Source: a virus
IMG/VR virus record: IMGVR_UViG_3300045988_183178
DNA: 64,000 nucleotides
Reading direction: 5' to 3' (one strand)
The translations under genes were made by a program, and so were the position numbers. Each line of letters begins with the position of its first letter. Position 1 is the stretch's first letter. Positions 111 through 64,000 of this stretch are shown here, piece by piece. The notes beneath the pieces were generated by a model. It was not told the origin of the DNA, did no database searches, and saw only the letters and a list, made by a program, of their open reading frames with translations.

Positions 111-237
111 TATCTTTGTCTCCTTTAAATAAATTATTTAATGAAAATATGACAGAAAAATAAAATTAATAAATTAACATATATATCAAAAAAAGCTCCT
201 ATGAATTCACATAGAAGCTTTTTAATAATTTGTTTAC

Positions 238-807
238 CTATTCCTTAGTTTCTTTTACACTTAATGTTCCAGGTTCTATTGCATGGAAATATAATGCAGG
301 ACAATAATCATTATCAATTGATAATTCAAAGCACTTATCCTGTTCATTATATATAATCTGTCCTTCTAAAGTAGCTAATCCAGATTTTCGTATATTATCC
401 GGTTTAAATCTCCAATCTGCTGCATTTACATCAAATGTACAGAAATCTCCTTCATGTAATGGCTTTCCACAATCATCATAACCTATGATTATTTTAGATT
501 CTTTTATATCTTTACTACCATTAATCTTTTCAATTTCTTTTAAAGCATCCCATACAGAACTTATCATTACTGATTCATCTAAATCATCACCATCATGTTT
601 TAAATGCTTACATATTATTTTGCCCTGCTCTTTTCTTGTTAATTTCTTTACAGGTTCAGGAATAATTGAAAATTTTATTATCTCAATTGCATCATCTATG
701 GCTTCCTGATAATGTACTAAATCTTCATCATCTAAAGATATCTGATGTTTAGCATTTTCTAATTTATCTATAATGTCTGATTTTATTCTAACACTCTTAT
801 TCTCCAT
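238..807 (-). CDS. hypothetical protein (189 aa; start moved to MENKSV)
   Basis: Long minus-strand ORF. The internal ATG at 805-807 is preceded by AAAGGAG at 9 nt spacing. The upstream ATG of the track ORF lacks a Shine-Dalgarno site. Confidence 0.65.
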   Translation of the reverse strand: MENKSVRIKSDIIDKLENAKHQISLDDEDLVHYQEAIDDAIEIIKFSIIPEPVKKLTRKEQGKIICKHLKHDGDDLDESVMISSVWDALKEIEKINGSKDIKESKIIIGYDDCGKPLHEGDFCTFDVNAADWRFKPDNIRKSGLATLEGQIIYNEQDKCFELSIDNDYCPALYFHAIEPGTLSVKETKE

Positions 808-1074
808 AAAACTATATCTCCTTTTACCTTTCTTCATTCAAATCAATACTCTGATTATTTGAATTATCTGCATTTGATTTTATATATTCAGGCTCTTTAT
901 TTTCTCCTATTAAATCAAGACAATTATTTAAAATCTCAAGTGTATTAATATTTGTATCATAAAAATTCTGAATATTGACCTGTTTAATTTTTGAATAAAT
1001 ATGCCCTATAATTTCATTTTTATGGACTCTGTTATAATCTTCTTTATCAGGGATTCTTATGCTTTTGCTTCTGC

Positions 1075-1251
1075 TCTATATATCTCTGTTTCCCATCTGT
1101 CTGCCATATTTATCAAACTGATAGTCTGTATATATATCTAACTTTATTCTTCCGGTTGGAGTAATTTTTATTACTGTTCCTATTTTATCTTCTGTTGGAA
1201 GTCCATTAGTTATAAGTACTTTATCTCCTATTTTAAGTTTTAATTCATTCA
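1075..1251 (-). CDS. small hypothetical protein (58 aa, KOW-like N-terminus IGDKVLI), terminated by an in-frame TAG that is followed by about 77 more open codons
   Basis: ATG at 1249-1251 is preceded by GAAGGAATAAAAT. Protein reads MNELKLKIGDKVLITNG... The same frame stays open after the TAG down to a TAA that overlaps the next gene's ribosome-binding site. Confidence 0.45.
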
Positions 1252-1327
1252 TAATATTTTATTCCTTCTGTTTTGTTTTTTGTTTAGAAGGCTCTAACTG
1301 TTATTTTTTCCAGCTAAAGCCTTATTT

Positions 1328-3004
1328 TTAATCTAAATCTATAACAGGTTCATCTTCCTGTTTATTATCTTGTTTATTCTTATCTATTAAATCAGAAAAA
1401 TTATAGCAATGCTCTATGCAATGAACGCTATTTATATTATTAAAATTATGATTTGCTTTAAGCCTAACAGAAATTCTGTCAATATAGAAATATGGAAATC
1501 TTGAATTATAATGTATATAAACAGGTGCTTTTACATTATTTTGTAGCTGGGATAAAAGTATATCAAGTTCTTCCTGTGAATTTATCTTAATTGCGATATC
1601 ACCATTACAAAAGTTTTTAATATAGGAGTTTGTAATTAACTTATTTATATCCTCTGGTTTAAGATTTATCAAAGTATCAAGTTTAAATGCATCCCCATCA
1701 ACATCTGCTGTAAGATAAGCTTCTCCTGATGCCGGATTCAATTTCTTATATGGAAATATTATTTTTAAACCTACTTCCTTTGCAGCTTCAACAGTTTCTT
1801 TTTCATAAGCTTCTGTTATATAAGGGTTATCCTTTGGAAGTCTGAAATATAATATTGATGTCATGTCCTCATCACATTCTTCTCCAGCCTCAAGTTTATG
1901 CTCTATATCTTCTCTTCCAATATATTCAGCCTGTGATAACAGGGCTTTTGTATTATGTTTTTCATTATTTGAAGGTATATCCAATTCTATATTCTTTTCT
2001 CCTATTTTATAATATTCATTTGGAAGGTCTTTTATAATAAAACAACCGCCTCTTCTATCCTTGCCGTTGTCTTTCTTAAATTGTTGAATTTCTTCTATTA
2101 AGTTATTGAGACTTATTGCAGAATATTTAACTTCGTTTGTATATCCAGTTTCATATTTTTTTATAAAAAGGTTATCGTTATCTGTCTTATAAATTTCTGC
2201 TGTATCACTCCATATTTGGTCGCCATCATTAAACTCATAACCATATTCAGCTATTTTTTTATCCTTAAAACACATTGATTCATATTTACTTTGTTCAAGT
2301 ATTATTGAAAAATCTGTATAAAGCATAAACCGAAGCTCAAATGGAATTGCCATAAAATTGCCGCAAGCTATATCATTACTTTTAAACCAGTAAGGATTAT
2401 TTGAATTATATTCAGGAATAATCCCAGTATAAGGGAATCTAGCTATATTATAGGCTAATATATCTCTTTCTTTCTCATTATCTATTACAAAGACAGTTTT
2501 TCCATTCATATATTTTGACATAATATTATCTGGTATTCTTATTTCACCACTGTCATATTTCTTCTTTAAATCCTGATTGTTAAGTATATTCATATAAGGA
2601 GTCTCTTTATTATTGTTCCTCTCTACTGTTTCATAATTAACATCTTCATATTCTGTACTATATGTAAACTCTGCTCCCCTACTATGAAGCTTAAACATAT
2701 CTTCCCATATTGGCTCTCTTGGTGTACCTGCTTCATATGAATATATCTTTTCATTTATCGTAAATTCATAAGGTTTGGCTAATACTAAATCTCCATCTTT
2801 ATTTTCAACAAATAACACATCCTCAAGTGCATCATAAGCTTTTTCAACTTCGATATCAGTCTGTAGCTGCTTGAATACGCTCTCGTATTTGTTTGTGGTA
2901 AAATCCGGATAAGTTACCTTGTCTTCCAAGGTCTTCTCTTCATTTATTATGTGGCCGCTATGTGTTTTTAAAAAATCTTCAATTCTCTGAGTATCAATTA
3001 ACAT
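1328..3004 (-). CDS. hypothetical protein (558 aa); paralog of the next gene
   Basis: Long ORF with RBS AAGGAGAG. Its N-terminal about 120 aa align with ORF 3049..4005 (MLIDTQRIEDFLK.. versus MIIDTERLDNFIK..). Confidence 0.8.
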   Translation of the reverse strand: MLIDTQRIEDFLKTHSGHIINEEKTLEDKVTYPDFTTNKYESVFKQLQTDIEVEKAYDALEDVLFVENKDGDLVLAKPYEFTINEKIYSYEAGTPREPIWEDMFKLHSRGAEFTYSTEYEDVNYETVERNNNKETPYMNILNNQDLKKKYDSGEIRIPDNIMSKYMNGKTVFVIDNEKERDILAYNIARFPYTGIIPEYNSNNPYWFKSNDIACGNFMAIPFELRFMLYTDFSIILEQSKYESMCFKDKKIAEYGYEFNDGDQIWSDTAEIYKTDNDNLFIKKYETGYTNEVKYSAISLNNLIEEIQQFKKDNGKDRRGGCFIIKDLPNEYYKIGEKNIELDIPSNNEKHNTKALLSQAEYIGREDIEHKLEAGEECDEDMTSILYFRLPKDNPYITEAYEKETVEAAKEVGLKIIFPYKKLNPASGEAYLTADVDGDAFKLDTLINLKPEDINKLITNSYIKNFCNGDIAIKINSQEELDILLSQLQNNVKAPVYIHYNSRFPYFYIDRISVRLKANHNFNNINSVHCIEHCYNFSDLIDKNKQDNKQEDEPVIDLD

Positions 3005-3048: not shown

Positions 3049-4005
3049 TTATATATATTGTTTGTCTTCAGCTATTTTCCGAATATTATCCCAATCATTA
3101 AATTCTACAGACTGTTTTATGTTATCTATTTCAGCAATATCTTCCATATACTGTTTATCATCAACTTTATTCACCGTATTAATACAATAAAATGGATATT
3201 CTTTGTGATAAAAAGGATAATCTTTAAGAATGATTGTAAATTTACCTGAACCATATAATGTCAAAAATAACATATACTGTTCCAGTTTACTATTAACCTG
3301 AATAGCAATTTCTTTATTTATAAACATATCTATAATGGCATCCGGTATTTTTTTAATTTGAGAAATTTCGTATATTTCTTCTAAATTAAGTTCTAATTTA
3401 TCATCTAAATCAGGCTCCAATATTGCTGTTGAGTATCTTACAAGATTGTTACTACCATTGTCTGCTAGATAATAAGTATATTCAGGCTTATACGATAAAG
3501 ATATTAATTTTATATCGTTTTTAAAATTCTCCAAAAATATCTGATGCTCACGTTCATTATTTATCCTAATTATAATTTTAGAATCTAAAAATAAATCCTT
3601 TATGATATCTGGAATCTTAAGCTTTGACTTTTCACTATCGTCATATATAAGATGTTCAGCCAGCTTGCTTCCACCACTATATTTATCAAACATATCAGCC
3701 CATATTTCATACTGTGATGTTCCTGCTTTATACTCCTGCCAATCATTAGTAAGTATTAATTCGGTATCTCCAGAATGTTCTGTATCTTTAAAGTATTCAT
3801 ATGCCTTTAAAAAAGATGCATTACTCAATTCGTTCCATTTTTCTTCTAATTCCATATCTTTTTTTAACTGCTCATATACACTTTCCCATTTACCTGTTTT
3901 GTAATTAACATATATAAGTGCATCTTCAAAGTTTTTCGCTTTAGAATCTATCTGACATTTATGGGCTTTAATAAAATTATCCAGTCTTTCTGTATCAATT
4001 ATCAT
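3049..4005 (-). CDS. hypothetical protein (318 aa); tandem paralog of 1328..3004
   Basis: ORF with RBS AAAGGAGATAAAAC before the ATG. Shares the N-terminal domain with the upstream gene. Confidence 0.8.
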   Translation of the reverse strand: MIIDTERLDNFIKAHKCQIDSKAKNFEDALIYVNYKTGKWESVYEQLKKDMELEEKWNELSNASFLKAYEYFKDTEHSGDTELILTNDWQEYKAGTSQYEIWADMFDKYSGGSKLAEHLIYDDSEKSKLKIPDIIKDLFLDSKIIIRINNEREHQIFLENFKNDIKLISLSYKPEYTYYLADNGSNNLVRYSTAILEPDLDDKLELNLEEIYEISQIKKIPDAIIDMFINKEIAIQVNSKLEQYMLFLTLYGSGKFTIILKDYPFYHKEYPFYCINTVNKVDDKQYMEDIAEIDNIKQSVEFNDWDNIRKIAEDKQYI

Positions 4006-4717
4006 GTTTTATCTCCTTTTCATTATCCTTTTTAACTGATATACTTTTTTCTTTAGATAGCTTATTAAGATCTCTTATATCTATTTCTAAGCTTTTTAAA
4101 TTATCCAAAAATTCTGTTATATATCTTACTTCTACAGTATCACTGCTAAGAACAGTCTTAGGATCTTCCAGTGTTATGTTGCCGTAATTTCTTGCAAATT
4201 CAAATGCTGCATCTATATCTGAATATTTTAATTCCTTTAAATGTGCTATATATTTACAGATATTTGTGAAATTATCTCTTATGACCTTTTTATATTCATT
4301 GTTCGTAAGATTAAGTACTGGCTTTTTATATGTAACTTCTACATTTTTTACAAAGCTGTTCTTCTTTAAAATTTCAGTGATTTCTTCAATATCACTATCT
4401 TTCATATATCCTGTAAATTCTGCCGGATGCATATATACATTAAATAATGCTTCGGGATTAAGACATATATTATTTCTTAAACTGTCTTTACTTACAAGTC
4501 TTAATTCATCACAGACACCATAAGTTCTTGAAAAATCAACCAGATATCCGGCTATTGCAAGTTCTGGATATAACTCTCTTTCAAATGCAGTTTTATCAAT
4601 CAGATATCCTGTGCCATAAGCATATACACCTTCGATGCCTATTCTTACCTTTTTGTATTCACTGTATAAGCATTCTGGGTCAATGTTGCTAAAGTTCCAT
4701 GTAAATTTCTCTGCCAT
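3995..4717 (-). CDS. hypothetical protein (240 aa; start at MAEKF)
   Basis: The internal ATG at 4715-4717 is preceded by AAAGGAGAAAAT. The track ORF's 5' extension actually covers the promoter motif and terminator hairpin. Confidence 0.75.
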   Translation of the reverse strand: MAEKFTWNFSNIDPECLYSEYKKVRIGIEGVYAYGTGYLIDKTAFERELYPELAIAGYLVDFSRTYGVCDELRLVSKDSLRNNICLNPEALFNVYMHPAEFTGYMKDSDIEEITEILKKNSFVKNVEVTYKKPVLNLTNNEYKKVIRDNFTNICKYIAHLKELKYSDIDAAFEFARNYGNITLEDPKTVLSSDTVEVRYITEFLDNLKSLEIDIRDLNKLSKEKSISVKKDNEKEIKHDN

Positions 4718-4753
4718 ATATATTTTCTCCTTTATAAAATGATTTGAAATAAA

Positions 4754-4766
4754 TATGACAGAAAAA
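4754..4766 (-). promoter_or_regulatory. conserved promoter-like motif (gene strand TTTTTCTGTCATAT), 37 nt upstream of the ATG at 4717 and fused to a terminator T-run
   Basis: About 34 copies of TATGACAGAAAAA (plus-strand reading) in the window, each 36-39 nt upstream of a minus-strand start codon. Confidence 0.6.
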
Positions 4767-4770
4767 AAAA

Positions 4771-4796
4771 GCACCGGTTACATTTGTAACCGGTGC
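4771..4796 (-). terminator. intrinsic terminator hairpin (GCACCGGTTACA/TGTAACCGGTGC) plus T-run on the minus strand
   Basis: Perfect 12 bp stem followed by TTTTTTTTT on the gene strand. Confidence 0.7.
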
Positions 4797-4866
4797 CCAT
4801 TGAACATATTATAAATTTAAAACTTTATGATTTTATTTACATTATTATATTTTCAAGCATTAACCT

Positions 4867-5247
4867 TTAATATAAGTTATGTATATTTCTTGTTAAATCT
4901 AATGTCGTAATTGGAGCTATACAAGCCATTTTTTTAAAATCCTTTACTGGGCAATCTCTATCTGCTGCCAGCTTTTCCCATGCGTCATCTAAATCATTTG
5001 CAATTATTAATCCTCCATTACAACCGCCTGCAACATCAAACAAAAAGATGTTTTCAAGTTTTATAGACGGCTTATTATCTTTTATAAGTTCAGCGTATTC
5101 ACAATGAGTTAAAATATTTTCTTTATTGTATTCAAGATCTTCTGCTGTATCACAACATATTGTTCCGCCTAAACTTTGCTGTGCGTCCATATCTGCCACA
5201 CATTTATCACAATAGGCAAATTTGCTATTACATTTAATCATATGCAT
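4867..5247 (-). CDS. Cys-rich hypothetical protein
   Basis: ORF with RBS AGAAAGGA. Contains 11 cysteines (CDKC, CC, GGCNGG). Confidence 0.7.
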   Translation of the reverse strand: MHMIKCNSKFAYCDKCVADMDAQQSLGGTICCDTAEDLEYNKENILTHCEYAELIKDNKPSIKLENIFLFDVAGGCNGGLIIANDLDDAWEKLAADRDCPVKDFKKMACIAPITTLDLTRNIHNLY

Positions 5248-6153: not shown

Positions 6154-6235
6154 AAAATAACTCCTTTTAATTCCACAAGAAAACTTGATTTTTCAGATGA
6201 TGTACATATAGGATTTTTACCACACAATTCATTTT

Positions 6236-6427
6236 CTAACATATTTCAGGTTCATATTTACATTCTAGTTCTCTGCCCCCCGGAGTCAGATGCTTTATCC
6301 TGTTTATATCCTTATGTATACCTATAACAAAATAGCTGTTTATTACGCATAGATAATCAATGTCGTTATAGCTATTATTCCTTGGAATAGCTACACAATT
6401 TTTACAATTAGCACAGCATTTTACCAT
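6236..6427 (-). CDS. small Cys-rich zinc-finger-like protein (start at MVKCC)
   Basis: ATG at 6425-6427 after GGTGGA. CCANCKNC .. C .. C pattern. Confidence 0.55.
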   Translation of the reverse strand: MVKCCANCKNCVAIPRNNSYNDIDYLCVINSYFVIGIHKDINRIKHLTPGGRELECKYEPEIC

Positions 6428-6653
6428 TTCATCCACCTGCCTATAAGTCAAGATAGTTTTCTAACTTTTCCAATGTATCAAATCTGCCAATCCAGTCAAC
6501 GTCACATATACAATGCTTACCGTCTGAATCCTTAAAGTATGTTAAATCCATCTGCTCTGCCTTATGTTCTATTTTTATCAATCTATCATTAATGCTTGCA
6601 TTATCCATATTAACTCCTTTAATCAGGCTTTATAATTAAACCTTTGACAATTT

Positions 6654-6968
6654 TTATCTGTCATAATCACAATCATAATCATAGTTTTCTTTTGATGCAA
6701 CATCTTTGTCAACCACATATAAATAGTTTCCTTCATCTACGACAGTCAGGTATTCATTATCTCCTTCATCAAAGTTTCCATTCTCATCTAAATAAGCTTG
6801 GTCTGTTCCAAAATATCGTCTGCCGGTAGGATTGGTTTCAGTAGCGTATTCACTATCATCTTCTATTTCATTAATTACTAATTTATGGTAAGAAGTTCCC
6901 CCTGAATACTCATCTAAACATACAACTTTGTCTCCAACCTTTAAATCTAAAAATTTTTTAAATGCCAT
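6654..6968 (-). CDS. hypothetical acidic protein
   Basis: ORF with RBS AAAGGAG. Confidence 0.7.
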   Translation of the reverse strand: MAFKKFLDLKVGDKVVCLDEYSGGTSYHKLVINEIEDDSEYATETNPTGRRYFGTDQAYLDENGNFDEGDNEYLTVVDEGNYLYVVDKDVASKENYDYDCDYDR

Positions 6969-6992
6969 AATAAACTCCTTTATTTTTATATA

Positions 6993-7556
6993 TTATTCCT
7001 TAGCCAGATTCTTATAGAATCCAACTGTCATAAGTTCTTCTCTTAGCTCATCATACATTTTATGTAATCTGGGATTTACATAAGACATCCAGAGCTTCCT
7101 ATCATCTTTAGCCATAGCGGTTCTGACCATTGTAGCAGAGATAGGCATATCATAACGGTTCATAATAAGCTCTGCTGTATTAGCAAGGTCTTTCTTATCA
7201 AACCAATTGCTTCGGGATTCATCATTTCCATAAATCATTATTTCAGGATTCTTATGAATGTATCTGTCAGTATTATTAAGTAAGTATCTGCCCCATTCCG
7301 GGCGGATATCATTTTCATCTGTTAAATCAGCTAAACCATAAATCATCACTTCCGGTCTATCGCCATATATCTCTTTAAGAATCTTAGTTCTTGTATTAAT
7401 ATTAAAAGGATTTCGCTCTGTGCCACATTCCTGTGCAGAACCTATCAATATCAATAACCGGTCACACAACAATAATCCTGTATCTACAAGGCGTTCATGC
7501 CCTTTATGAAATGTCTGAAATCGTCCACATATTAAACCTGTATCATAAACTTTCAT
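6993..7556 (-). CDS. nadM: nicotinamide-nucleotide adenylyltransferase (NMNAT, NadM/NadR-type cytidylyltransferase fold)
   Basis: GRFQTFHKGH (HxGH nucleotidyltransferase motif) near the N-terminus and ISATMVRTAM (ISSTxxR motif) near the C-terminus. The ATG at 7554-7556 is preceded by AAAGGAG. Confidence 0.8.
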   Translation of the reverse strand: MKVYDTGLICGRFQTFHKGHERLVDTGLLLCDRLLILIGSAQECGTERNPFNINTRTKILKEIYGDRPEVMIYGLADLTDENDIRPEWGRYLLNNTDRYIHKNPEIMIYGNDESRSNWFDKKDLANTAELIMNRYDMPISATMVRTAMAKDDRKLWMSYVNPRLHKMYDELREELMTVGFYKNLAKE

Positions 7557-7570
7557 ATTCTTCTCCTTTT

Positions 7571-7753
7571 TTAATTTTCGTGTGTTATTTTTCTCCATGC
7601 TCGAATCTCTTTACTTGGAAAATGCTTCCATTCAAGACCGCCATGTTTGTTTTCAACAATCATATCTCTAAATATCATATCATCACTCGCAAGTATCTCT
7701 ACTTCTTCATTTACATTGGGAAGCTCATATTCGGGCTTTTTCCATTTATTCAT
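7571..7753 (-). CDS. small hypothetical protein (start at MNKWKK)
   Basis: ATG at 7753 after GAGGAGAAGCAT. Confidence 0.5.
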   Translation of the reverse strand: MNKWKKPEYELPNVNEEVEILASDDMIFRDMIVENKHGGLEWKHFPSKEIRAWRKITHEN

Positions 7754-7791
7754 ATGCTTCTCCTCACTTTTCCAGTAAATCATTACTTCAT

Positions 7792-7983
7792 TTACTCATC
7801 AAGAACACCTATCATAGATGGTATCTGACACACTTTTAGTTCACCATCAAATAATTCTCTATGTTCTCTTGATTCAAAATATCTTTTTGCTTTATTATAA
7901 GCATCTCTTTTTGAATCTGCTTTTACTTCAATCATTCTATCGTAGAATATTGCTATATAATTTCCATCTTTAATTCTTACCAT
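7792..7983 (-). CDS. small hypothetical protein
   Basis: RBS AAGGAGAG. Confidence 0.6.
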   Translation of the reverse strand: MVRIKDGNYIAIFYDRMIEVKADSKRDAYNKAKRYFESREHRELFDGELKVCQIPSMIGVLDE

Positions 7984-8022
7984 AATACATCTCTCCTTAT
8001 AACAAATCCTGAGTATTGTAAA

Positions 8023-8463
8023 TCATCGTTTCATTGTTTCATCAAATTCAACATTATATTTTTCAGAAATAGATTTTGTAAGTTTCATACTTGTAATAAT
8101 ATTTTCAAACCCATACTCCTCATACAATGCTGTTAATTCATCGAAAAGTAAAGTTCTATCGCTATATTTAAGTTTTCGGAAAGCTACCTCTTCAATTAAG
8201 TCTCCATTTTTATCTACTTTATCAAGATATATTTCTATATCAGTTGTAGAAGAAAAACAACCTTTGTATTTTTGTATTTTTATTATGTTTGTTGTTTTGA
8301 TTTTCTGCTTTTCGATTAATTCTGATTTATACACTTTTTTATTTTCATTGAGAACATTTAAGAATTCTTTAGTTTCCACAATTTTACGATTTACATCATC
8401 TAAAAGATTTTTTAATCCATTAATTGTTGCTCCTTGTAATTCTTCTCTTTTAACTGATTCCAT
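8023..8463 (-). CDS. hypothetical protein (start at MESVK)
   Basis: ATG at 8463 after GGAGGAAAATATT. Confidence 0.7.
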   Translation of the reverse strand: MESVKREELQGATINGLKNLLDDVNRKIVETKEFLNVLNENKKVYKSELIEKQKIKTTNIIKIQKYKGCFSSTTDIEIYLDKVDKNGDLIEEVAFRKLKYSDRTLLFDELTALYEEYGFENIITSMKLTKSISEKYNVEFDETMKR

Positions 8464-8519
8464 AATATTTTCCTCCAATTCTTATAAAACTCTTGTTTAC
8501 TCATACATACCCTTTCTTA

Positions 8520-8984: not shown

Positions 8985-9077
8985 ATAGTTTTGTCCTCTC
9001 TTTACTTTTAATATCATTTAGATGTTCCATCTGAAAATTCAACAAGAATTTTGGTTGGATATTTTATATGTATAAAA

Positions 9078-9167
9078 TTATTCTATTTCTAAAATTTCCT
9101 TTAATAAAGCCGCCTTTCTGAGTTTTTCTATTAATTCTTTTACATTATTATTTTTCTTTGTTCCCAT
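9078..9167 (-). CDS. very small protein (29 aa)
   Basis: AAAGGAGG then ATG at 9165-9167. The promoter motif lies 36 nt upstream. Confidence 0.45.
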   Translation of the reverse strand: MGTKKNNNVKELIEKLRKAALLKEILEIE

Positions 9168-54102: not shown

Positions 54103-54135
54103 AAATTTTATTCCTTTCTTTTAGTAAAAATAAGC

Positions 54136-54745: not shown

Positions 54746-54855
54746 ACTGTATGTCCTCCTTTTAAATTGATTTATCTTATATATGACTGAAAAATAAAAT
54801 AAGATAAACAAAAAATGCATTTCTATTTATTAATATAGAAATGCATTTAACACAA

Positions 54856-55794: not shown

Positions 55795-56063
55795 GCAACT
55801 GCCTCCACAACAACTTCATTACCTTCAATATGCGCATTGCTGCAATATCCGCCAATTGCTTTAAGGGATTCGACAACCAGATCCTTTGTAGCATATAAAT
55901 GATCTCCAGGAGCTAAATAAAAAACATTTTCTTCACTGTTTATTAATTCAATGCCTTCTGATGAAGAAACATTTTTGCATACATATGGATAATTATCCTC
56001 CTTATTTTTGTTAACTTCTACTGCTAAAGCCTTTCTCCATGGCGTAAAATCGAATTTATTCAT
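55791..56063 (-). CDS. small hypothetical protein
   Basis: AAAGGAGGAATTTGTT then ATG. Confidence 0.6.
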   Translation of the reverse strand: MNKFDFTPWRKALAVEVNKNKEDNYPYVCKNVSSSEGIELINSEENVFYLAPGDHLYATKDLVVESLKAIGGYCSNAHIEGNEVVVEAVA

Positions 56064-56210
56064 AACAAATTCCTCCTTTAAATTTTTGATATAAAGGATA
56101 TGACAGAAAAAAAATCATTAATGAAAGGAGATTCTAAATTCATGATGATATAACAAAAGCAGGAGATGCTTGCTTATCTCCTGCTAAAATATTAATTTCT
56201 AAATTATTTT

Positions 56211-56267
56211 ATGAACTATTCACAATTGACTATTGTCGAATAGAGTTTTCCTGCTATTCTTCGATAA
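56211..56267 (+). repeat. 57 bp dispersed repeat, copy 5 (most diverged)
   Basis: ATGAACTATTCACAATTGACTATTGTCGAATAGAGTTTTCCTGCTATTCTTCGATAA. Confidence 0.7.
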
Positions 56268-56313
56268 TTGATTTTTCCTTTTTAATTGAATGTTTTATAT
56301 ATGACATAAAATA

Positions 56314-56736: not shown

Positions 56737-56796
56737 AAAGTCCTCCATAATTAAAAAATATATTATATTTTTAATATGACAGAGGAAATAAAAAAA

Positions 56797-56818
56797 CTGT
56801 CAGGAATCGTCCTGACAG
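56797..56818 (-). terminator. intrinsic terminator (CTGTCAGGA/TCCTGACAG)
   Basis: Downstream of the 844 aa gene. Confidence 0.65.
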
Positions 56819-56838
56819 TTTAATTATAAAATAATAAA

Positions 56839-59373
56839 CTATAATTCTAATTCGTCATCAAATATTCTATTTTCCTTATGTTCTACTTTAGATAAATTCT
56901 TTAAATCTAATTCATCTGCTGCCTTTACTGTTACTTTTTCTAATTCCTTATTTGCAACAGGATTATCTAATTTTTCAGATTTACCGCAAAATTCATTAGA
57001 AATATAATCAAGGTCATACGATGATACTACCTTTGCATTCTCTTTTAGACCTTCTTTTTGAACATCTAGTGGATATAATGAGAACACTGTATCAGCCTCT
57101 TTTATATCAGTTGTAAGCTCTCCGCAGCCTTCGGCATATAAATCAAATAATTGTTTCATATCTGGAATAGCGTTATTTAATATATATCCTAATTCAACTG
57201 ATGTCTGTTTATTTAAATCATTTGAAACAACATTCTGCCCTAAATTTAAACTGCCTACATGATCAATCCAATATGTCGCATCGTTTTCTACATCATAAAC
57301 ACATGGAGTTGCCATGGTTGATGCTGCATTTATTTTAATTGGATGCTCAATCTGTGATATTTCGAACTGTTTTCCAAGGAAAATAACAGATCGTTCATCT
57401 TTAGTAAAATCAATAACCTCATCATAATCATCATATTCAGCATCATGATCCCTATGACATGCTTTTCTTGTATCCATATACTCACCTAAAGAACCCTCTT
57501 TTTCCATTTCAATAAATTTAAGTCCTTCAGCTTTATTAAATGGCACTGAGAATCCATGAATTTCTACAACAGCATATTTAATACCGGCATCTTTCATAGC
57601 TTTTTTATCTAATAAAACCATTTCAGTAGCACCATTTGGGGCATCTGTGTAATCGCCACTATGTACACCAAATTTTCCGGATTTTAAATTATAATAATAC
57701 AGGGTATCAACTGTTATGTTTTTATCATTATAAAACTTAACACTTAAATCAATGTCCCCTCTTACTTCATGTCCATTATTATCCTTATAATTTTTCCAGT
57801 ATATTCCATAAGCTAATAAGTTTTTATTCTGATCACCTGATAATCTACTATATGGAGGAATAATATTACCTGCAGAACAATCTCTCATATCTCTTAAAGG
57901 AATTTTAATATCTTCTAATTTAGGGTCAATATATACTTTACCCAACTGTTTTGTATCTGAAATGTTATGAACAATAGTCTGTCTAATAATATTTCTTATA
58001 TTATTCATTTGAGCATCTGAAAGATGTAACGGTTTATTGTCTGAAACTAATAATTTTCCATTTTTATTCTTATAAATTCTATTCTCATGTTCTTTATTTC
58101 TTAATTCAAACGAATTATACATAGTAAGCATTGACTGCACAGGAACATTACAATACATAATTTTGTTTGCAATTGAAGTTAAAGCTAAACCATTGCCTTC
58201 TTTTGCTGCTTCATCAACATACTGAATATAATGCTGAACAAAATACCCAGGGAAATTATCCGCAAGCTTATTAAATTTTTGTACATTTTCAAATGATGAA
58301 ACTTTAATAAGATTATCTATCGCTTTTTCAAACTGTCTTGGGACTGGAATAATATCCTTACCATTTTCATCCTTTTTTATTTTATTAGCAAGATTATCAA
58401 ATGCCTTTACTACTCTTTCAGGACCAGTATGTGAATCAATTCTATTCATTAATCTCTTATATAATCCTTCATCCTTCCAGATATCATAGTAAAGATTTGG
58501 ACAGTTATTTAACATATCCTTTATTAACCTTTTGTCTGAATTGGTTAACTTATATTTAACTTTGCCGTTCTTATTTGAAACTGTTTTCTTAGTATTTAAT
58601 GATATATCATTAACTTTGTTTCCAAAATTCTGATTTGAAAGTTCTGCTGCAAATCTTAATACATCTTTAGAATCCTTTATCATATTAACTGCTGAATTTC
58701 TTGCACCCAGTTTATATAATAGACTAGCTGTTTTAACTAAATTTTCTTTACTCTGATAAGGTATCTCGGTTGAAACAATTTGGTCAATTTTAAATGGATA
58801 TTCACGAAAATATGTTTCAACATCTTTCAAGTTTTCTTCATTCATACCTTTTGGCGCATGAATTCTGTTTATCATTAATTCATCTAATTCTTTTATATTT
58901 GTATTATTAATTACCTTTAATTTGTCAGGGAAGTTTTCCAATAATGGGAGCCTGTCAACTTTTTCCTCAGTTACAGAATCTCTTATCATTTGTGCTATCG
59001 TTTTACATCTTTCATCATCTGTCTGGGAAAATGTATAATATAATAACGAATTAATATATAATGCTTCCTCAGATTTATCCATGACTTCTTCCGGGAAATT
59101 AGGATAGAATAACTCAACAGAATTAAATTCATCAATCCCTTTATATTCTTTAATAATATCTGTCAAATCATTATATACCTCACATATTTCCTGTGCAGGC
59201 AATTTAGCTAATGCAGATATAGCATCCGTGCTTAATGTATAACCATAACTTTCCAAATTTCTATTGACTGATAAAGCCATATTAATGTTTTCATATTCAA
59301 TATCAATGGGATTTTGTGGGATTGAAAACTTAGATAGATTGTTAAATAAAATAGAATTAATAGATTTGTTCAT
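56839..59373 (-). CDS. large hypothetical protein (844 aa)
   Basis: Long uninterrupted ORF; no motif recognised. Confidence 0.75.
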   Translation of the reverse strand: MNKSINSILFNNLSKFSIPQNPIDIEYENINMALSVNRNLESYGYTLSTDAISALAKLPAQEICEVYNDLTDIIKEYKGIDEFNSVELFYPNFPEEVMDKSEEALYINSLLYYTFSQTDDERCKTIAQMIRDSVTEEKVDRLPLLENFPDKLKVINNTNIKELDELMINRIHAPKGMNEENLKDVETYFREYPFKIDQIVSTEIPYQSKENLVKTASLLYKLGARNSAVNMIKDSKDVLRFAAELSNQNFGNKVNDISLNTKKTVSNKNGKVKYKLTNSDKRLIKDMLNNCPNLYYDIWKDEGLYKRLMNRIDSHTGPERVVKAFDNLANKIKKDENGKDIIPVPRQFEKAIDNLIKVSSFENVQKFNKLADNFPGYFVQHYIQYVDEAAKEGNGLALTSIANKIMYCNVPVQSMLTMYNSFELRNKEHENRIYKNKNGKLLVSDNKPLHLSDAQMNNIRNIIRQTIVHNISDTKQLGKVYIDPKLEDIKIPLRDMRDCSAGNIIPPYSRLSGDQNKNLLAYGIYWKNYKDNNGHEVRGDIDLSVKFYNDKNITVDTLYYYNLKSGKFGVHSGDYTDAPNGATEMVLLDKKAMKDAGIKYAVVEIHGFSVPFNKAEGLKFIEMEKEGSLGEYMDTRKACHRDHDAEYDDYDEVIDFTKDERSVIFLGKQFEISQIEHPIKINAASTMATPCVYDVENDATYWIDHVGSLNLGQNVVSNDLNKQTSVELGYILNNAIPDMKQLFDLYAEGCGELTTDIKEADTVFSLYPLDVQKEGLKENAKVVSSYDLDYISNEFCGKSEKLDNPVANKELEKVTVKAADELDLKNLSKVEHKENRIFDDELEL

Positions 59374-59513
59374 AATATAACCTCCAAAAAAATAAACACA
59401 ATAGTTCTTACAAAAAAAGTCTTAATATCATAGTTTATTTACTATGACATTAAGACTCAAATAATATAATAATCAGCGTTAAACAAAAAAAATAATTTTT
59501 CATAATTTAGAAT

Positions 59514-59779: not shown

Positions 59780-59826
59780 TTGTAAATAATACTCAAAATA
59801 CTCCATTAATTTGAAAGCATATATAA

Positions 59827-59839
59827 TATGACAGAAATA
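59827..59839 (-). promoter_or_regulatory. conserved promoter-like motif upstream of recA
   Basis: TATGACAGAAATA. Confidence 0.5.
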
Positions 59840-59858: not shown

Positions 59859-60953
59859 TTACTCATCAATTACATTTTTTATATTTTTTTCAATAAAGGG
59901 TGAAATGTCGTCTTCTCCCTTAAGTCTTTTTCTGATTAAAGTTTCTAATTTATCTTTATATTCCGAGTGCTCTTCTATATATAATTTAGCATTTGCTCTG
60001 CCCTGCCATCTTAAACTAGAATCTTCTGCATCTGTAAACCAAGCTCCAGTTTTATTGATAAATCCATGTTCAACAGCTAAATCAATTATTTCACCATTCT
60101 TGTCTATACCTTTACCAAATGAAATTTCAAATGTTGCCTCCTTAAATGGAGGAGCTATTTTATTTTTAACTACCTTTGCTTTTGTTCTGTTAGCAACAAT
60201 AGCTCCGCCTTCCTTAATTGACTCAATTCTTCGTACATCAATTCTTACAGAAGAGTAAAACTTTAATGCTCGTCCCCCAGTTGTTGTTTCTGGGTTGCCA
60301 AACATAATTCCAACCTTTTCTCTTAACTGATTAATAAAAATAACTGAACAATTACTTTTACTTACAACGGGAGTCAGTTTCCTTAAAGCCTGCGACATAA
60401 GTCTTGCTTGTAATCCAACATGTGAATCCCCCATTTCTCCATCAATTTCTGCCTTAGGTACAAGAGCTGCTACAGAATCTATTACAACCAAATCTAAAGC
60501 TCCGGATCTTACCATTGTTTCTGCTATTTCTAAAGCCTGTTCTCCGCTGTCTGGCTGTGAAATATATAAATTATTTATATCCACACCTAAATTAGAAGCA
60601 TAAACAGGGTCTAATGCATGTTCAGCATCAATAAACCCGGCAATTCCACCATTTTTTTGTATTTCTGCAATCATATGCAAGGTTAAAGTTGTTTTACCAC
60701 TTGATTCCGGGCCAAATACTTCTATAATTCTTCCTTTTGGAATTCCTCCGCCTAAAGCCTGATCCAGTGCTAAGGAACCTGATGAAAATGTTTCAACATT
60801 TAATTTCTTTGTATCACCTAATTTAAAGACAGAACCTTTGCCATAGGTCTTTTCAATTTCTAACATTGCAGCATCAAGTGCTTTTAATTTGTCATTTGAA
60901 ATTGATTCGTTACCCTGTGTTTCGGTATTAATATTCTTTGGTGGTCTTCCCAT
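59859..60953 (-). CDS. recA: RecA recombinase
   Basis: GPESSGKTT Walker A; ALDPVYA; [10 protein letters not shown]; the full-length sequence aligns with bacterial RecA. Confidence 0.9.
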
Positions 60954-61029: not shown

Positions 61030-61521
61030 TTAAGAGACATTTTGTTTAAGCAACTCTTCTCTCTTTTTATCTAAATAGACTACACCAACAGCATATGAAG
61101 CCCAGATATCTTTTTTAAAGCCATAAAACCATCCCGGATTCTTTTTAGTTCCTACAATTCCAAATCTATCTATTAATGCTTGCCTTATATTCGCATCCTT
61201 TGCTCTTGAATCATGGCAAATAAATTGTTTTTCTTCTATTCTGTATATTTGCGTCCATTTAATATTTCTGCTTTCAGTTACTTGAATGAATCTGCCAATC
61301 CATACACATGTATCAAATACAGTTTTTCCTACTGCCATACCATATGAAGCTATCATTTCTATTGCTAAAATATCAAAATCAATTTTATTCATTAATTTTA
61401 ATAATTCATTATTATCTAATAATCCTTTGTCCAATATATGATAATTACTATCTAATAATGAATAAGCCGATTTAACATCTCCTGGATCTATTGCTAATAT
61501 AATCTGTCTATTATTTTCCAT
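61030..61521 (-). CDS. RuvC-like Holliday junction resolvase
   Basis: ILAIDPGDVKSAYSL N-terminal RNase-H-fold motif; size 163 aa. Confidence 0.7.
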   Translation of the reverse strand: MENNRQIILAIDPGDVKSAYSLLDSNYHILDKGLLDNNELLKLMNKIDFDILAIEMIASYGMAVGKTVFDTCVWIGRFIQVTESRNIKWTQIYRIEEKQFICHDSRAKDANIRQALIDRFGIVGTKKNPGWFYGFKKDIWASYAVGVVYLDKKREELLKQNVS

Positions 61522-61651
61522 ATTTTTCCTCCAATATATAAAACTTTATATTAAAAATATGACAGCTTAAAAAGAAAAATAAGACAATCTCAAATCAATG
61601 AAATTGCCTTATTTATTAAAATATTTAGTTGTTGTGTTGTGTATTCAGATA

Positions 61652-63403
61652 TTAATAATCAATATCATCGAAAATAATCTGTGGAGTTGTTACGCCATTC
61701 CATGTATTTTCACTTAATCTTCCATATAAAGTTAAAACAGTTGGTTCTCCAAGCTTTTCAAATTTTTCAACTAACCCGCCAAAATTAATTGCGTTAGCCT
61801 GATTATTAAAGAGTTTTAAAACCTTTTTTTCAGCACCCAAAAGCTGATAATATACACCTTTTCTTAGTTCTGTCATATAAGAAATTTTATATCTTGGCTC
61901 TTCAAATCCTTTGCCAAAGATATAATTATGAAAGGCTTCCTGCTCTTCCTTTACCTGCTCTACTGTAATATCGTAATCATAATACTTGTAATTGAACTCT
62001 TTTGGCTTTTCTCCTGCAGCTTCATGTATAGCTTCAATAAACTTATCCATATTTTCAGCTTTAACTTCTGAAATACCTGCTGCATACGGATGTCCTCCAT
62101 AATTACCCATATACTGCTTAACCTGATCTAATAATAACTTCATATTAACATTTGCCCCTTCAATTTCTGGTGCTCTTGCAGAACCTTTATAGGCGGTACC
62201 ATTATTTATTGGAGCAAATACAATAACAGAAGTATTGTATTCTTCCTGTAACTTACCGGCAATTAAGCCAATAACTCCCGGATGTATTTCTCCTTCCTTA
62301 CCACATATAACAATAGGATAGTCATTTTCCATATGAGCTTCCTCTATACGCTGTTTTAAAACAGGTAAAAGGTCATTAGTATATGCCTTTCTTCTTTCGT
62401 TTGCTTCTACTAGAACCTTTGCTTTTGCAATTGCTGTAACAAAGTCGTTGTCATTCTGAAGGAAAAGGTCTACTACCTGATTAGAACCAAAAGTTTCCAG
62501 TCTTGAAATAGCGTTAATGGTAGGACTTATTAAATAAGCTAAATCATCAGTTGTTACAACAGTTTCAAGATCAGGTTTAAGGCCTACAAGTAAGCAGAAC
62601 ATTCCGGTTGTACGTCCAGAATTCTGTGTTAATGTAAATAACCCGTTCTTGAGTATTAAATAATTATCATATCCATATACTCCATTAATATTTTCAATTA
62701 AATTAACACTATCACCAACAGTTGCGATAGCAGCAAGACCATTTATCTTATCTATTGTTTCATCTTTGATATACCATTCTGGCAAATTTAATTGCTTAAT
62801 ATGCTGAGCAAATTTATATACAAGCCCTGCACCACAATAATCTGAGAATTTTGCACCACAATCAACTGCATGAGGATCAATAATTACATCTGCAGGTGGC
62901 AATATTTTTTTATTGGTTTCGTCAGTAACTGGAAGGTGATGATCTAAAATAAGAACACTCCAACCTAATTCTTTTGCCTTTGTTATTGCGTCAAGAGCTG
63001 CGATACCATTATCTACAGTTATTAACAATCCTGTATCATAATTTTTTATAACTGGTAAACCATGAATTGATATTTCATTACATAAATATTCTACAATATT
63101 TGCAGAAGCTCCATATCCATCTAATTCTCTATCTGGTATATACCATTTTACATCTGAGAATTTAAGGTCTAACAACATAAGATTTAATTCAGATGTTGAA
63201 CATATTCCATCGGTATCATAATCTCCTATTATTCTAACTGGCTTATATTTAAATAAACTAAGTAAATTAAACGCCTTGTCAAAATCGGAAATTTTGTAAT
63301 ATTCAGATGTTTCTCTACCATTATTAAAATCAGCAAAATATTTATTTGCTTTTTCAATAAAATTTACCTCATCAGTATTTTTCTTCTTCCATGTTATACA
63401 CAT
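61652..63403 (-). CDS. recJ: RecJ-like single-strand DNA exonuclease (DHH/DHHA1)
   Basis: GDYDTDG, ILDHH and GGHPYAAG motifs. The start at MCITW is preceded by AAAGGAG. Confidence 0.8.
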   Translation of the reverse strand: MCITWKKKNTDEVNFIEKANKYFADFNNGRETSEYYKISDFDKAFNLLSLFKYKPVRIIGDYDTDGICSTSELNLMLLDLKFSDVKWYIPDRELDGYGASANIVEYLCNEISIHGLPVIKNYDTGLLITVDNGIAALDAITKAKELGWSVLILDHHLPVTDETNKKILPPADVIIDPHAVDCGAKFSDYCGAGLVYKFAQHIKQLNLPEWYIKDETIDKINGLAAIATVGDSVNLIENINGVYGYDNYLILKNGLFTLTQNSGRTTGMFCLLVGLKPDLETVVTTDDLAYLISPTINAISRLETFGSNQVVDLFLQNDNDFVTAIAKAKVLVEANERRKAYTNDLLPVLKQRIEEAHMENDYPIVICGKEGEIHPGVIGLIAGKLQEEYNTSVIVFAPINNGTAYKGSARAPEIEGANVNMKLLLDQVKQYMGNYGGHPYAAGISEVKAENMDKFIEAIHEAAGEKPKEFNYKYYDYDITVEQVKEEQEAFHNYIFGKGFEEPRYKISYMTELRKGVYYQLLGAEKKVLKLFNNQANAINFGGLVEKFEKLGEPTVLTLYGRLSENTWNGVTTPQIIFDDIDY

Positions 63404-63462
63404 ATAATTTGTTCTCCTTTTCAATATTATTTAACAAATTAATGACAGAAAAATAAAATAAA

Positions 63463-63503
63463 AAGCATACATTATATTGTTTTATGCAATACAATGTATG
63501 CTT
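63463..63503 (-). terminator. long hairpin (AAGCATACATT/AATGTATGCTT) after the recJ-like gene
   Basis: 11 bp stem. Confidence 0.55.
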
Positions 63504-63508
63504 CTGAA

Positions 63509-63895
63509 TCATAAATAGAAAAACAACCCTGAATAATAATACTTAGGAAGTTTATCTATCTCTTTACAAATTTGAATAATTCTTTCATCCACTAAGAAAG
63601 AATATTGTTTTACTCTTCTTACATCAGATTTAAAATAATGTACATCATTTATAAATCCTATAAGAATAGTAAAGAATATAACATAAGACAAAATACTTAT
63701 TATACTTAATATAATATGTATTAAACCTGTAGTTAATAAATTCAAATTTGTAAAAATAGAAATTAACAAAGTTACACATAACTTTGTCTGCTGCATAGCT
63801 GTATATTTTTCAATATCACGCCAATAAGTTGTATAACCTGCAGCAACAGAGTTATATTTCTTTAAGAAAAAATGATTTAATATATTTTTATTCAT
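63509..63895 (-). CDS. small membrane protein
   Basis: Hydrophobic helices. Confidence 0.55.
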   Translation of the reverse strand: MNKNILNHFFLKKYNSVAAGYTTYWRDIEKYTAMQQTKLCVTLLISIFTNLNLLTTGLIHIILSIISILSYVIFFTILIGFINDVHYFKSDVRRVKQYSFLVDERIIQICKEIDKLPKYYYSGLFFYL

Positions 63896-64000
63896 TATTT
63901 CTTCTCCTTTATTAATTATATTCTGATAGATATATGACAGAAAAATTAATAGGAGTATGTATATAATTTTTATTCCCTTATTACAATAAATGATAAAGTA

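Follow-up and report, generated by a model that had tools for sequence, protein, structure and literature searches.

The 64,000-nt stretch of viral DNA analyzed here (IMG/VR record IMGVR_UViG_3300045988_183178, referred to below as the window) carries, between its genes and on a single strand, a short, almost invariant motif with the core CTGTCATAT, which, to judge by its sequence context, is very probably a promoter. The more complete reading that we favor, with moderate confidence, is that the motif defines a phage-specific class of promoters which would be read by a sigma factor encoded by the phage itself. The initial annotation had described a single class of -10-like promoters fused to terminators, and the sequence evidence supports this description through the anatomy of the motif, its coupling to terminators, its conservation in a relative and the sigma-70 nature of the protein encoded at 29084..30112.

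The window has a G+C content of about 28% and every credible gene lies on its minus strand. The genes include those coding for DnaE (in pieces), RecA, a RecJ-like protein, a UvrD-like helicase, an IscB nuclease and the sigma factor, and the window is probably the replication/accessory region of a jumbo gut phage. About 111 kb of non-redundant sequence of this phage was assembled by walking along related contigs; the loci named L130, L132, L133, and L134 lie beyond the window, and L123 is the locus of the relative. The coordinates given for cores, boxes and hairpins are window positions on the minus strand (Table 1).

The motif is real and its distribution is highly non-random. Exact matches to the 8-mer TATGACAG number 33 in the window, as compared with 2.1 expected from shuffled sequences, and 26 of them are on the plus strand, which corresponds to CTGTCATA when read on the gene (minus) strand. 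The 13-mer TATGACAGAAAAA, with at most one mismatch, gives 27 matches in the window vs. 0.7 expected, 25 of them on the plus strand. The gene strand of the window carries CTGTCAT 31 times, with 30 of these copies in intergenic positions, and the counts of this heptamer over 110.8 kb of the same phage are 62 vs. 14. When a 30-nt weight matrix built from the motif sites themselves was run over the window, all 30 sites scoring at least 16 bits were on the gene strand. Very few sites have intermediate scores (CAGTCATAT at 54789, CTGCCATAT at 20896, and ATGTCATAT at 56307), and there exist only about four one-base intergenic variants of CTGTCAT, as against the 31 exact copies.

The copies had been described initially as being always in the same orientation and always intergenic. 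The former statement holds for the full motif (30 vs. 0 sites at 16 bits or more) but not for the bare 8-mer, seven copies of which are in the reverse orientation (CTGTCATA on the plus strand, at positions including 2550, 6658, 7025, 21764, 51060, and 61870), where about 1.4 are expected from the base composition. These seven copies are all intragenic and have no T-run, and they probably reflect a codon effect; the copy at 21764 is an ATG-ACA-G gene start. The latter statement is true of 30 of the 31 copies of CTGTCAT but fails for the one at 25868-25875, which lies within the IscB gene, where it falls in the HNH motif and looks like a chance occurrence. Three corrections also have to be made to the initial list of sites: the site placed at 46193 is at 46183, the position 59445 carries no copy of the motif and belongs to the stem of a terminator, and the variants CAGTCATAT (54781-54789) and CTGCCATAT (20888-20896) were missing.

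The anatomy of the unit was established by aligning 64 intergenic sites, selected on CTGTCAT, with the C of this heptamer taken as position 0. Read on the gene strand, the unit consists of a T-run, CTGTCATAT, 6 nt, T-A/G, AAAGGAG, and ATG, in that order. The T-run spans positions -8 to -1, and TTTTT-CTGTCATAT forms a near-invariant signal of 14 bases. The invariant CTGTCAT is followed by A at +7 in 57 of the 64 sites and T at +8 in 56 of them, then by W at +9 and T at +10. Further downstream, T is found at +15 in 53/64 sites and a purine at +16 in 59/64, and this pyrimidine-purine step, located 7 nt past the hexamer, is present in 54 of 63 sites. Next come an A-rich leader, GGAG at about +30 to +35, and the ATG at about +45. 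Based on our own gene calls, the distance between the C and the start codon has a median of 45 nt (interquartile range 43-47) and fits 25 of the 32 intergenic copies; the copies at 9210 and 46190 have a Shine-Dalgarno (SD) sequence and an ATG, at +43 and +55, respectively, before short open reading frames (ORFs). The constant spacing of 36-39 nt to the ATG reported initially agrees with these values, since it amounts to 36-38 nt when measured from the end of CTGTCATAT. The distance between the upstream stop codon and the motif is broad (interquartile range 56-124). The T-run is present even at sites where no hairpin occurs (63940, 56106, 52343, 9210, and 48360) and therefore belongs to the motif.

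The motif is closely coupled to transcription terminators. A strong hairpin (folding free energy, dG, of -12 kcal/mol or below) occurs in the 55 nt upstream of 20 of 33 copies, vs. 2.7% of random windows, and the median folding energy upstream is -13.8 kcal/mol, vs. -5.1 kcal/mol for random windows. The gene strand of the window has 27 terminator-like hairpins, 20 of which have a motif at most 45 nt downstream; the same is true of 41 of the 56 hairpins detected when all the loci are included. In 27 of these 41 pairs, the gap between stem and motif is at most 12 nt, so that the T-run is common to the terminator and the motif, in line with the initial remark that in many units the T-run of the terminator is the 5' half of the motif. 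Between positions 27001 and 47000, there are 15 terminators consisting of a GC-rich hairpin plus a T-run, vs. 4.7 expected. The motif is the only conserved element located between the hairpin and the SD sequence, and because genes lying behind a terminator need re-initiation of transcription, a promoter is what this sole conserved element is expected to be.

The initial annotation had also considered an RNA processing site. A cleavage or stabilization site giving rise to 5' ends some 30-45 nt before the start codons of long transcripts would fit the strict strand specificity of the motif and its constant distance from the SD sequence and the ATG, and the presence of all the genes on one strand makes long transcripts conceivable. 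Most of the copies, however, abut strong terminators directly and would thus be rarely transcribed from upstream, which makes processing unlikely. In addition, no conserved RNA structure involving the motif was found, and an Rfam search of the window detected only the HEARO RNA and nothing overlapping the motif. The invariant bases are those which sigma factors recognize in DNA (TG and A-11), and the genes downstream would be left without any promoter. We consider this explanation very improbable.

Only 26-28 of the approximately 88 called genes (about 30%) carry the motif, 26 of them having it 30-60 nt upstream. Operons must consequently exist, and the initial proposal that each gene is its own transcription unit does not hold.

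The motif persists through the 111 kb or so of the same phage, in which the called genes are all on one strand over at least 111 kb. Two IMG/VR contigs, of 103 and 95 kb, share 97-98% identity with the window, and a 322-kb contig in ENA (OCHC01000010.1) carries a sigma factor 99% identical to the one encoded in the window; the only DNA match among deposited phages was a 680-bp fragment from human faeces. Relatives are carried by contigs of 149, 244, and 322 kb. The only intermediate relative is that encoding the sigma factor P0003 (51% identity), on a 149-kb contig from the Hadza gut. The order of its genes is the same (DnaE piece, HNH gene, DnaE pieces, CPBP-like gene, 128-aa gene, and sigma), and its locus shows the same core, T-run, and upstream box, and the same spacing to AAAGGAGG-ATG. 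The core is retained at three orthologous intergenic sites, whose flanks, including the hairpins, are only 24-50% identical in an ungapped comparison. A sigma scan of a genome collection yielded only unrelated bacterial and archaeal sigma-like loci, and a metagenome scan with the alignment of the two sigmas yielded the near-identical copy on the 322-kb contig and a bacterial SigE locus, without any third lineage.

A subset of the sites, in both the phage and its relative, share a near-identical 40-nt cassette, TTTTTCTGTCATATCTTTTATATCAAAATTATAAAGGAGG, which recurs before tandem paralogous genes. In the L132 locus (about 6500..10100, beyond the start of the window), tandem paralogs with MLSQ.../MISQ... 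starts each lie behind a near-identical terminator-promoter-leader cassette, and whole expression units appear to have been duplicated there. The near identity of the cassettes before tandem paralogs might mean that a phage regulator uses the motif as its operator, or that the motif was spread by duplication within a cassette, recognition by the polymerase occurring elsewhere; the box present at a fixed distance of 24 nt could then be a second binding site. Outside the cassettes, however, the flanks are unrelated and the core alone is kept, also at the orthologous sites of the relative, and no other conserved promoter element is present between the terminator and the SD sequence. An operator is in our opinion a highly doubtful explanation.

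The box in question defines a sub-class of sites. Twelve sites which have no abutting T-run carry, exactly 24 nt before the C, the sequence TTT-R-TGT-A/C-A-R-AA, which usually comes directly after the T-run of the terminator; these box-type sites make up about a fifth of all the sites. There are 18 copies of the box on the gene strand vs. 4 on the other strand, and the intergenic boxes are all coupled to a core, with the sole exception of that at 59404-59416. It resembles the first half of the core (TTTnTGTmA) and is found ahead of RecA, the SPFH gene, a helicase, the DUF5688 gene, and the operon containing the sigma gene. Possible roles for the box are those of a second promoter in tandem, an activator site or an UP-like element.

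As regards the sequence of the core itself, TG is present at motif positions 1-2 in 64 of 64 sites, one base (T) before the hexamer CATATW. The one-base variants all keep the G, and three of the four keep the T, the exception being CAGTCATAT at 54781-54789. The A at motif position 5 (-11) is found in all the sites and all the variants. The -12 position is an invariant C, and the -7 position is occupied by A in 30, T in 23, C in 10, and G in one of the 64 sites, so that the motif departs from the sigma-70 consensus, which has T at both -12 and -7. No conserved element was detected 16-18 bp upstream of the hexamer in the aligned sites, where the upstream conservation is limited to the T-tract or to the box at 24 nt. 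Two other registers were examined and rejected. If CTGTCA were a -35 element (it matches TTGACA at 4/6 positions), the -10 element would be at positions 23-28, where no conserved hexamer occurs, and the start in or after the SD sequence, which would then be missing from the transcripts. In the register TATwTw, the A at position 7 would be the -11 A, and TG would not be one base upstream; this A is replaced by T or G in seven sites with normal spacing, and since the normal distances to the SD sequence and the ATG are maintained in these sites, it is not the -11 A.

In the mechanism proposed, the T-tract would be located at about -24 to -17 and CTGTCATAT at -16 to -8, and the latter would act as an extended -10 element consisting of T-15 and G-14, one base, and the hexamer C-12 A-11 T-10 A-9 T-8 W-7. 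The predicted start of transcription is the conserved purine located 7 nt past the hexamer, and this start would give a leader of about 29 nt containing AAAGGAG. The most likely reader would be the host core RNA polymerase associated with the phage RpoD-like sigma factor (29084..30112). The changes in this sigma at W433 and T440 would affect the residues facing the -12 base pair and leave the TG-reading residues intact, and the invariant -12 C might make the motif a poor substrate for the host SigA and confer specificity for the phage sigma. In most units, the T-tract of the promoter would double as the U-tract of the terminator of the preceding unit, and a single module of about 60 nt would therefore end one transcript and start the next.

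The protein encoded at 29084..30112, initially described as a sigma factor, is confirmed as a member of the sigma-70 family by the Pfam region 2 and region 4 domains and by its alignment with solved SigA/RpoD structures, which extends from region 2 through region 4. The closest sigmas are Clostridia RpoD proteins, with about 37% identity. The sequence of region 2.4 is YATHWIRQSIYR (W433H, T440Y), that of most bacterial homologues being YATWWIRQAITR and that of the relative YATNWIRQYIIR; residue 433 is H in the phage and N in the relative, and residue 440 is Y and I, respectively, where W and T are present in most of 37 homologues. The PVHxxE motif (H455/E458) and the RERIRQIE of region 4.2 are kept. 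According to a review of the subject, Q437 and T440 face the -12 base pair, Q437H and T440I suppress a change from T:A to C:G at -12, and H455 and E458 read the -14 G of TGn (PMC2613000). The invariant -12 C and the altered residue 440 fit together, because T440I, which is the residue present in the relative, suppresses a -12 C. This match between the sequence of region 2.4 and that of the motif is suggestive but is not proof.

The 131-aa protein encoded directly upstream of the sigma gene (30125..30520, minus strand) is present at this position in both lineages and shows stronger conservation in the relative (64% identity) than does the sigma (51%). It gave one weak PHROGs match, to a family of unknown function, and is a candidate for a partner of the sigma or an anti-sigma factor.

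The host RNA polymerase might instead read the motif with a host sigma (SigA or an alternative one), the phage sigma serving another class of genes outside the sequence seen. As the operon containing the sigma gene is itself headed by the motif (31472), the host enzyme must recognize some copies first. Host-type promoters of the canonical kind are not enriched in the approximately 111 kb: TTGACA-17-TATAAT sites number 128 vs. 148 expected, and the intergenic ones (19 on the gene strand vs. 13 on the other) show nothing above chance. The -10 consensus of the sporulation sigmas E and K of Firmicutes begins with CATA, which also counts in favor of a host sigma, but the use of a sporulation sigma for replication genes would be odd. 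An extended -10 element without a -35 element is a normal host class (PMC2613000), but the -12 C, which is invariant in more than 60 sites of a genome with 28% G+C, is disfavored by the wild-type primary sigma (PMC2613000). The near-digital conservation of the motif is unlike that of housekeeping promoters, and the changes in the phage sigma fall precisely on the residues facing position -12. Recognition by a host sigma is therefore judged to be unlikely.

Another candidate is a phage RNA polymerase, either multisubunit (of the phiKZ/AR9 type) or single-subunit, encoded in a part of the genome not seen here. The sigma gene is on a 322-kb contig and that of the relative on a 149-kb contig, from which it follows that the genome is large and mostly unseen, and the AAATATATATTAT-(6N)-G promoters of AR9 (PMC5312081) resemble the motif with its rigidity and its 6N-TA feature. 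On the other hand, no beta-prime-like DFDGD motif and no polymerase family were found in about 130 kb of the phage plus its relative, and capsid, tail, terminase, and RNA polymerase genes were likewise not recognized in the approximately 111 kb of the phage. The presence of a full-length RpoD-like sigma implies that the host core is used, and the motif fits the grammar of extended -10 elements base for base, including the TG one base before the hexamer. A phage polymerase is thus quite an unlikely reader.

Several points weigh against the reading of the motif as a promoter class specific to the phage sigma. The -7 position is not a conserved T, which is atypical of the -10 elements of the sigma-70 family. 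The phage sigma retains the canonical residues reading the -35 element, yet no such element is present at 17 +/- 1 bp. The sigma gene belongs to an operon which is headed by the motif itself (31472). The two phage sigmas differ at residues 433 and 440 (H/Y vs. N/I), yet the motif is the same, and only two lineages are involved. All the genes being on one strand, gene orientation and strand are confounded. Lastly, about 111 kb have been seen of a genome of maybe about 150 kb or more, up to 322 kb, and a phage RNA polymerase might be encoded elsewhere. The joint claim that the whole visible gene set is run from one promoter, which is made orthogonal by the -12 C, is read by an RpoD-derived sigma with T440Y/I and W433H/N, and is fused to the terminator U-tract, the box being a second, perhaps early tier, is put forward here tentatively.

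Table 1. Cores of the putative promoters, upstream boxes, terminator hairpins and sigma gene in the window. Numbers preceded by a plus sign are distances in nt.
Feature	Position	Strand	Details
Core CTGTCATAT	63932..63940	-	T-run of 5, no hairpin; ATG +45, gene 63509..63895
Core CTGTCATTA	63440..63448	-	After hairpin 63465-63501; ATG +45, RecJ-like gene 61652..63403
Core CTGTCATAT	61557..61565	-	After hairpin 61578-61613; ATG +44, gene 61030..61521
Core CTGTCATAA	60978..60986	-	Box 61001-61013; ATG +33, RecA gene 59859..60953
Core CTGTCATAT	59826..59834	-	No ORF of at least 60 aa for about 400 nt, until terminator 59420-59455
Core CTGTCATAT	56774..56782	-	After hairpin 56794-56821; ATG +46
Weak variant ATGTCATAT	56299..56307	-	10.2 bits; followed by conserved leader element and terminator 56158-56185
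Core CTGTCATAT, strong cassette	56098..56106	-	T-run of 8; CTGTCATATCCTTTATATCAAA; ATG +43, gene 55791..56063
Variant core CAGTCATAT	54781..54789	-	24.1 bits; hairpin 54813-54848; ATG +44
Core CTGTCATAT	54232..54240	-	Box 54255-54267; hairpin 54269-54294; 138-nt leader with leader element at about 54180; SPFH gene 52528..54102
Core CTGTCATAT	52335..52343	-	T-run of 6, no hairpin; ATG +41, UvrD-like helicase gene 49381..52302
Core CTGTCATAT	49303..49311	-	After hairpin 49323-49352; upstream of CPBP-like gene 48331..49215
Core CTGTCATAT	48352..48360	-	Overlaps 3' end of upstream ORF; ATG +43, methyltransferase-like gene 47421..48317
Core CTGTCATAT	47077..47085	-	After hairpin 47092-47115 (6 nt); ATG +43
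Core CTGTCATAT	46182..46190	-	Box 46205-46217; hairpin 46219-46246; ATG +55
Core CTGTCATAT	44758..44766	-	T-run of 5; ATG +49, gene 43668..44717
Core CTGTCATAT	43573..43581	-	After hairpin 43597-43630; ATG +46, gene 42384..43535
Core CTGTCATGT	42306..42314	-	After hairpin 42320-42351 (5 nt); ATG +42, DnaE N-terminal piece 40431..42272; L123 ortholog site 2561
Core CTGTCATAT	38716..38724	-	After hairpin 38729-38753 (4 nt); ATG +46, gene 38442..38678
Core CTGTCATTG	36654..36662	-	After hairpin 36673-36699; ATG +43, gene 36161..36619
Weak variant GTGTCATAT	36036..36044	-	No T-run; ATG +54, gene 35733..35990
Core CTGTCATAA	35656..35664	-	After hairpin 35669-35696 (4 nt); ATG +40, 5'-3' exonuclease-like gene 34743..35624
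Core CTGTCATTT	34244..34252	-	After hairpin 34261-34294; ATG +46, gene 33625..34206
Core CTGTCATAA	33269..33277	-	After hairpin 33289-33310; ATG +44, DnaE C-terminal piece 31548..33233; L123 ortholog site 6822
Core CTGTCATAT	31464..31472	-	Box 31487-31499; hairpin 31504-31526; ATG +37; L123 ortholog site 8638
Operon behind core 31464..31472		-	Genes 30524..31435 and 30125..30520, then sigma
Core CTGTCATAT	27838..27846	-	T-run plus box 27861-27873; ATG +44, DUF5688 gene 26861..27802
Variant core CTGCCATAT	20888..20896	-	15.5 bits; box 20911-20923
Core CTGTCATAT	20829..20837	-	ATG +46, gene 20387..20791
Core CTGTCATAT	19755..19763	-	Box 19778-19790 (TTTGTGTCAAATA); ATG +46, gene 19280..19717
Core CTGTCATAT	17238..17246	-	After hairpin 17253-17277 (6 nt); ATG +45, gene 16734..17201
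Core CTGTCATGT	13750..13758	-	T-run of 7; upstream fold dG -17.7; ATG +43, gene 12450..13715
Core CTGTCATAT	12103..12111	-	After hairpin 12121-12154; ATG +44, gene 11738..12067
Core CTGTCATAT	9202..9210	-	T-run of 7, no hairpin; AAAGGAGG, ATG +43 (short ORF)
Core CTGTCATAT	4753..4761	-	After hairpin 4769-4798 (7 nt); T-run of 9; ATG +44, gene 3995..4717
Core CTGTCATAT	147..155	-	T-run of 5; AAAGGAG; ATG +45; gene leaves the window
Box TTTATGTAAAAAA	61001..61013	-	24 nt before core
Box TTTTTGTAAGAAC, no core	59404..59416	-	40 nt before ATG of 844-aa gene 56839..59373
Box TTTATGTAAAAAA	54255..54267	-	
Box TTTATGTAAAAAA	46205..46217	-	
Box TTTATGTAAAGAT	31487..31499	-	
Box TTTATGTAAAATA	27861..27873	-	
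Box TTTATGTCAAAAA	20911..20923	-	
Box TTTGTGTCAAATA	19778..19790	-	
Terminator hairpin	63465..63501	-	Motif +16
Terminator hairpin	61578..61613	-	Motif +12
Terminator hairpin	56794..56821	-	Motif +11
Terminator hairpin	54813..54848	-	Motif +23
Terminator hairpin	54269..54294	-	Box, then motif +28
Terminator hairpin	49323..49352	-	Motif +11
Terminator hairpin	47092..47115	-	Motif +6
Terminator hairpin	46219..46246	-	Box, then motif +28
Terminator hairpin	43597..43630	-	Motif +15
Terminator hairpin	42320..42351	-	Motif +5
Terminator hairpin	38729..38753	-	Motif +4
Terminator hairpin	36673..36699	-	Motif +10
Terminator hairpin	35669..35696	-	Motif +4
Terminator hairpin	34261..34294	-	Motif +8
Terminator hairpin	33289..33310	-	Motif +11
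Terminator hairpin	31504..31526	-	Box, then motif +31
Terminator hairpin	17253..17277	-	Motif +6
Terminator hairpin	12121..12154	-	Motif +9
Terminator hairpin	4769..4798	-	Motif +7
Terminator hairpin	192..221	-	Motif +36
Sigma factor gene, RpoD/SigA-like, 342 aa	29084..30112	-	Pfam Sigma70_r2 + r4; PHROG 351

Some features associated with individual sites are worth describing. The stretch of about 400 nt behind the core at 59834, which contains no ORF of at least 60 aa, may be a non-coding transcript; the 844-aa gene beyond it has a box of the upstream type and no core. A conserved leader element of about 45 nt, AGCARGAAARCTCCATYCGACAATAGTCARTTGYGAGTAGTT, preceded by TTATCG, follows motif promoters with long leaders. 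Copies of it are found at about 56190..56270 and 54110..54195 (minus strand), in L130 at about 5000..5095, and in L123 at about 6200..6295. This element contains a small hairpin, in which one pair is compensatory, and matches no Rfam family; with a terminator behind its copy at 56255, it may represent a small RNA or an attenuator. In the L133 locus (about 1020..1100), a complete cassette in the reverse orientation (CTGTCATAT, AAAGGAGG, and ATG-TAG) is placed back to back with a forward copy, 17 nt apart, and extends into a bidirectional terminator. In about 111 kb, no second full-strength copy is found on the other strand. We considered this divergent pair (at about 1078) as a possible proof of promoter function, but it is not decisive, as the reverse copy has only an ATG-TAG mini-ORF behind it and the reverse strand carries no genes.

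The gene coding for DnaE is in three pieces (40431..42272, 39704..40222, 38783..39541, and 31548..33233, all on the minus strand). An HNH_3/NUMOD4 endonuclease gene lies between pieces 1 and 2, and the exon-like junction of these pieces (...NPERVSMP / DIDSD...) suggests the presence of an intron. Between pieces 2 and 3 there is a 5.5-kb gap with six genes having their own motif promoters and terminators, where the corresponding gap in L123 contains one 90-aa gene; the gene appears to be truly split, without any intein. An IscB-type nuclease of 419 aa is encoded at 25329..26588 (minus strand; Pfam RRXRR + HNH), and a HEARO/omega RNA (26667..26880, minus strand; Rfam RF02033, 107.7 bits) is located directly upstream of it. 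Downstream of the sigma terminator, the region 27850..29040 consists of 1.2 kb without ORFs, in which the AT skew falls to about 0 and about six iteron-like copies of TAACAATATATAG are present (27993-28261); this region may be a replication origin. A similar gene-free region of 1.3 kb follows the sigma region in L123. A variant of the motif, TTGTCATATCCTTATACAATATCA, occurs at about 28832 on the gene strand.

No previous description of the motif was found. A full-text search for the motif string returned only primer sequences, and the literature on the sigma promoters of huge/jumbo phages contained no description of it. A BLAST search of deposited phages with a 53-nt cassette gave only chance matches (E-values of at least 4), and a scan of viral contigs with the 14-mer TTTTTCTGTCATAT gave, among the matches listed, only single chance matches. 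The motif is a new example of a familiar kind of signal. If confirmed, it would allow transcription units to be marked in large human-gut phages of an uncultivated family. If the proposed reading is true, the system would be a natural example of how one base (the -12 C) and one or two sigma residues can create a private promoter class, and the compact terminator-promoter-leader module and the orthogonal sigma/promoter pair might be useful in low-G+C Firmicutes. The concepts of phage transcription are unchanged, intergenic promoter motifs tied to phage sigmas or polymerases being well known.

Among these known systems, phages T4 and SPO1 use sigma-like factors (gp55 for the T4 late promoters, TATAAATA; gp28 and gp33-34 in SPO1) to redirect the host core to a short, near-invariant element. 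These factors are highly diverged or truncated sigmas working with accessory proteins, and the consensus sequences differ from the motif; no accessory factor was identified in this phage. The early promoters of AR9 have the highly invariant sequence AAATATATATTAT-(6N)-G and a start 6 nt downstream (PMC5312081). The motif has in common with those of AR9 and phiKZ a rigid AT-rich element, a 6-nt gap, a conserved start nucleotide (here predicted), many repeats, and a large genome, but the AR9/phiKZ promoters are read by multisubunit polymerases without a sigma, whereas here a sigma is present and no such genes were seen.

The promoters recognized by gp36 of phiEco32 consist of a single 9-bp element, tAATGTAtA, with starts 6-8 bp downstream (PMC8948821). 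In both cases there is a phage protein of the sigma-70 family and a single element of about 9 bp without a -35 element, the link with the sigma being a predicted one in the present phage. Contrary to gp36, which has no recognizable region 4, the sigma described here has a canonical region 4.2, and whereas phiEco32 has six such promoters plus early promoters of the host sigma-70 type, the motif occurs about once per 2 kb over more than 110 kb. The extended -10 promoters (TGn) of primary sigmas likewise have TG one base before the hexamer, and the residues H455/E458 are kept in the phage sigma; these promoters have T at -12 and -7, however, where the motif has an invariant C and a variable base, and W433 is also replaced in the sigma.

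The closest resemblance is to the late promoters of Kayvirus, which have the sequence TGTTATATTA without a -35 element and a start 6 nt downstream, and whose recognition is ascribed to a phage sigma (PMC7698491). The initial annotation did not recognize the consensus among described sets of phage promoters, but it is one base from this late -10 box: TGTCATATW differs from TGTTATATT essentially at the -12 base, and TGTCATATWT matches TGTTATATTA at about 8/10 positions, with C for T at -12 in every site. The two systems share a long conserved extended -10 box with no -35 element, attribution to a phage sigma, and a start about 6 nt downstream (the last two being predictions here), and they occur in low-G+C phages with Firmicutes-type SD sequences and many hairpin terminators. 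The late sigma of the Herelleviridae is divergent, and that described here is RpoD-like instead. Unlike the Kayvirus box, the motif has an invariant -12 C, no conserved T at -7, and a preceding T-tract. A distinct set of strong early promoters of the host type was not found alongside it, and whereas the Kayvirus promoters serve a few late structural units, the motif precedes the genes for DnaE, RecA, the RecJ-like protein, and a helicase, those of the primase region, and many small genes.

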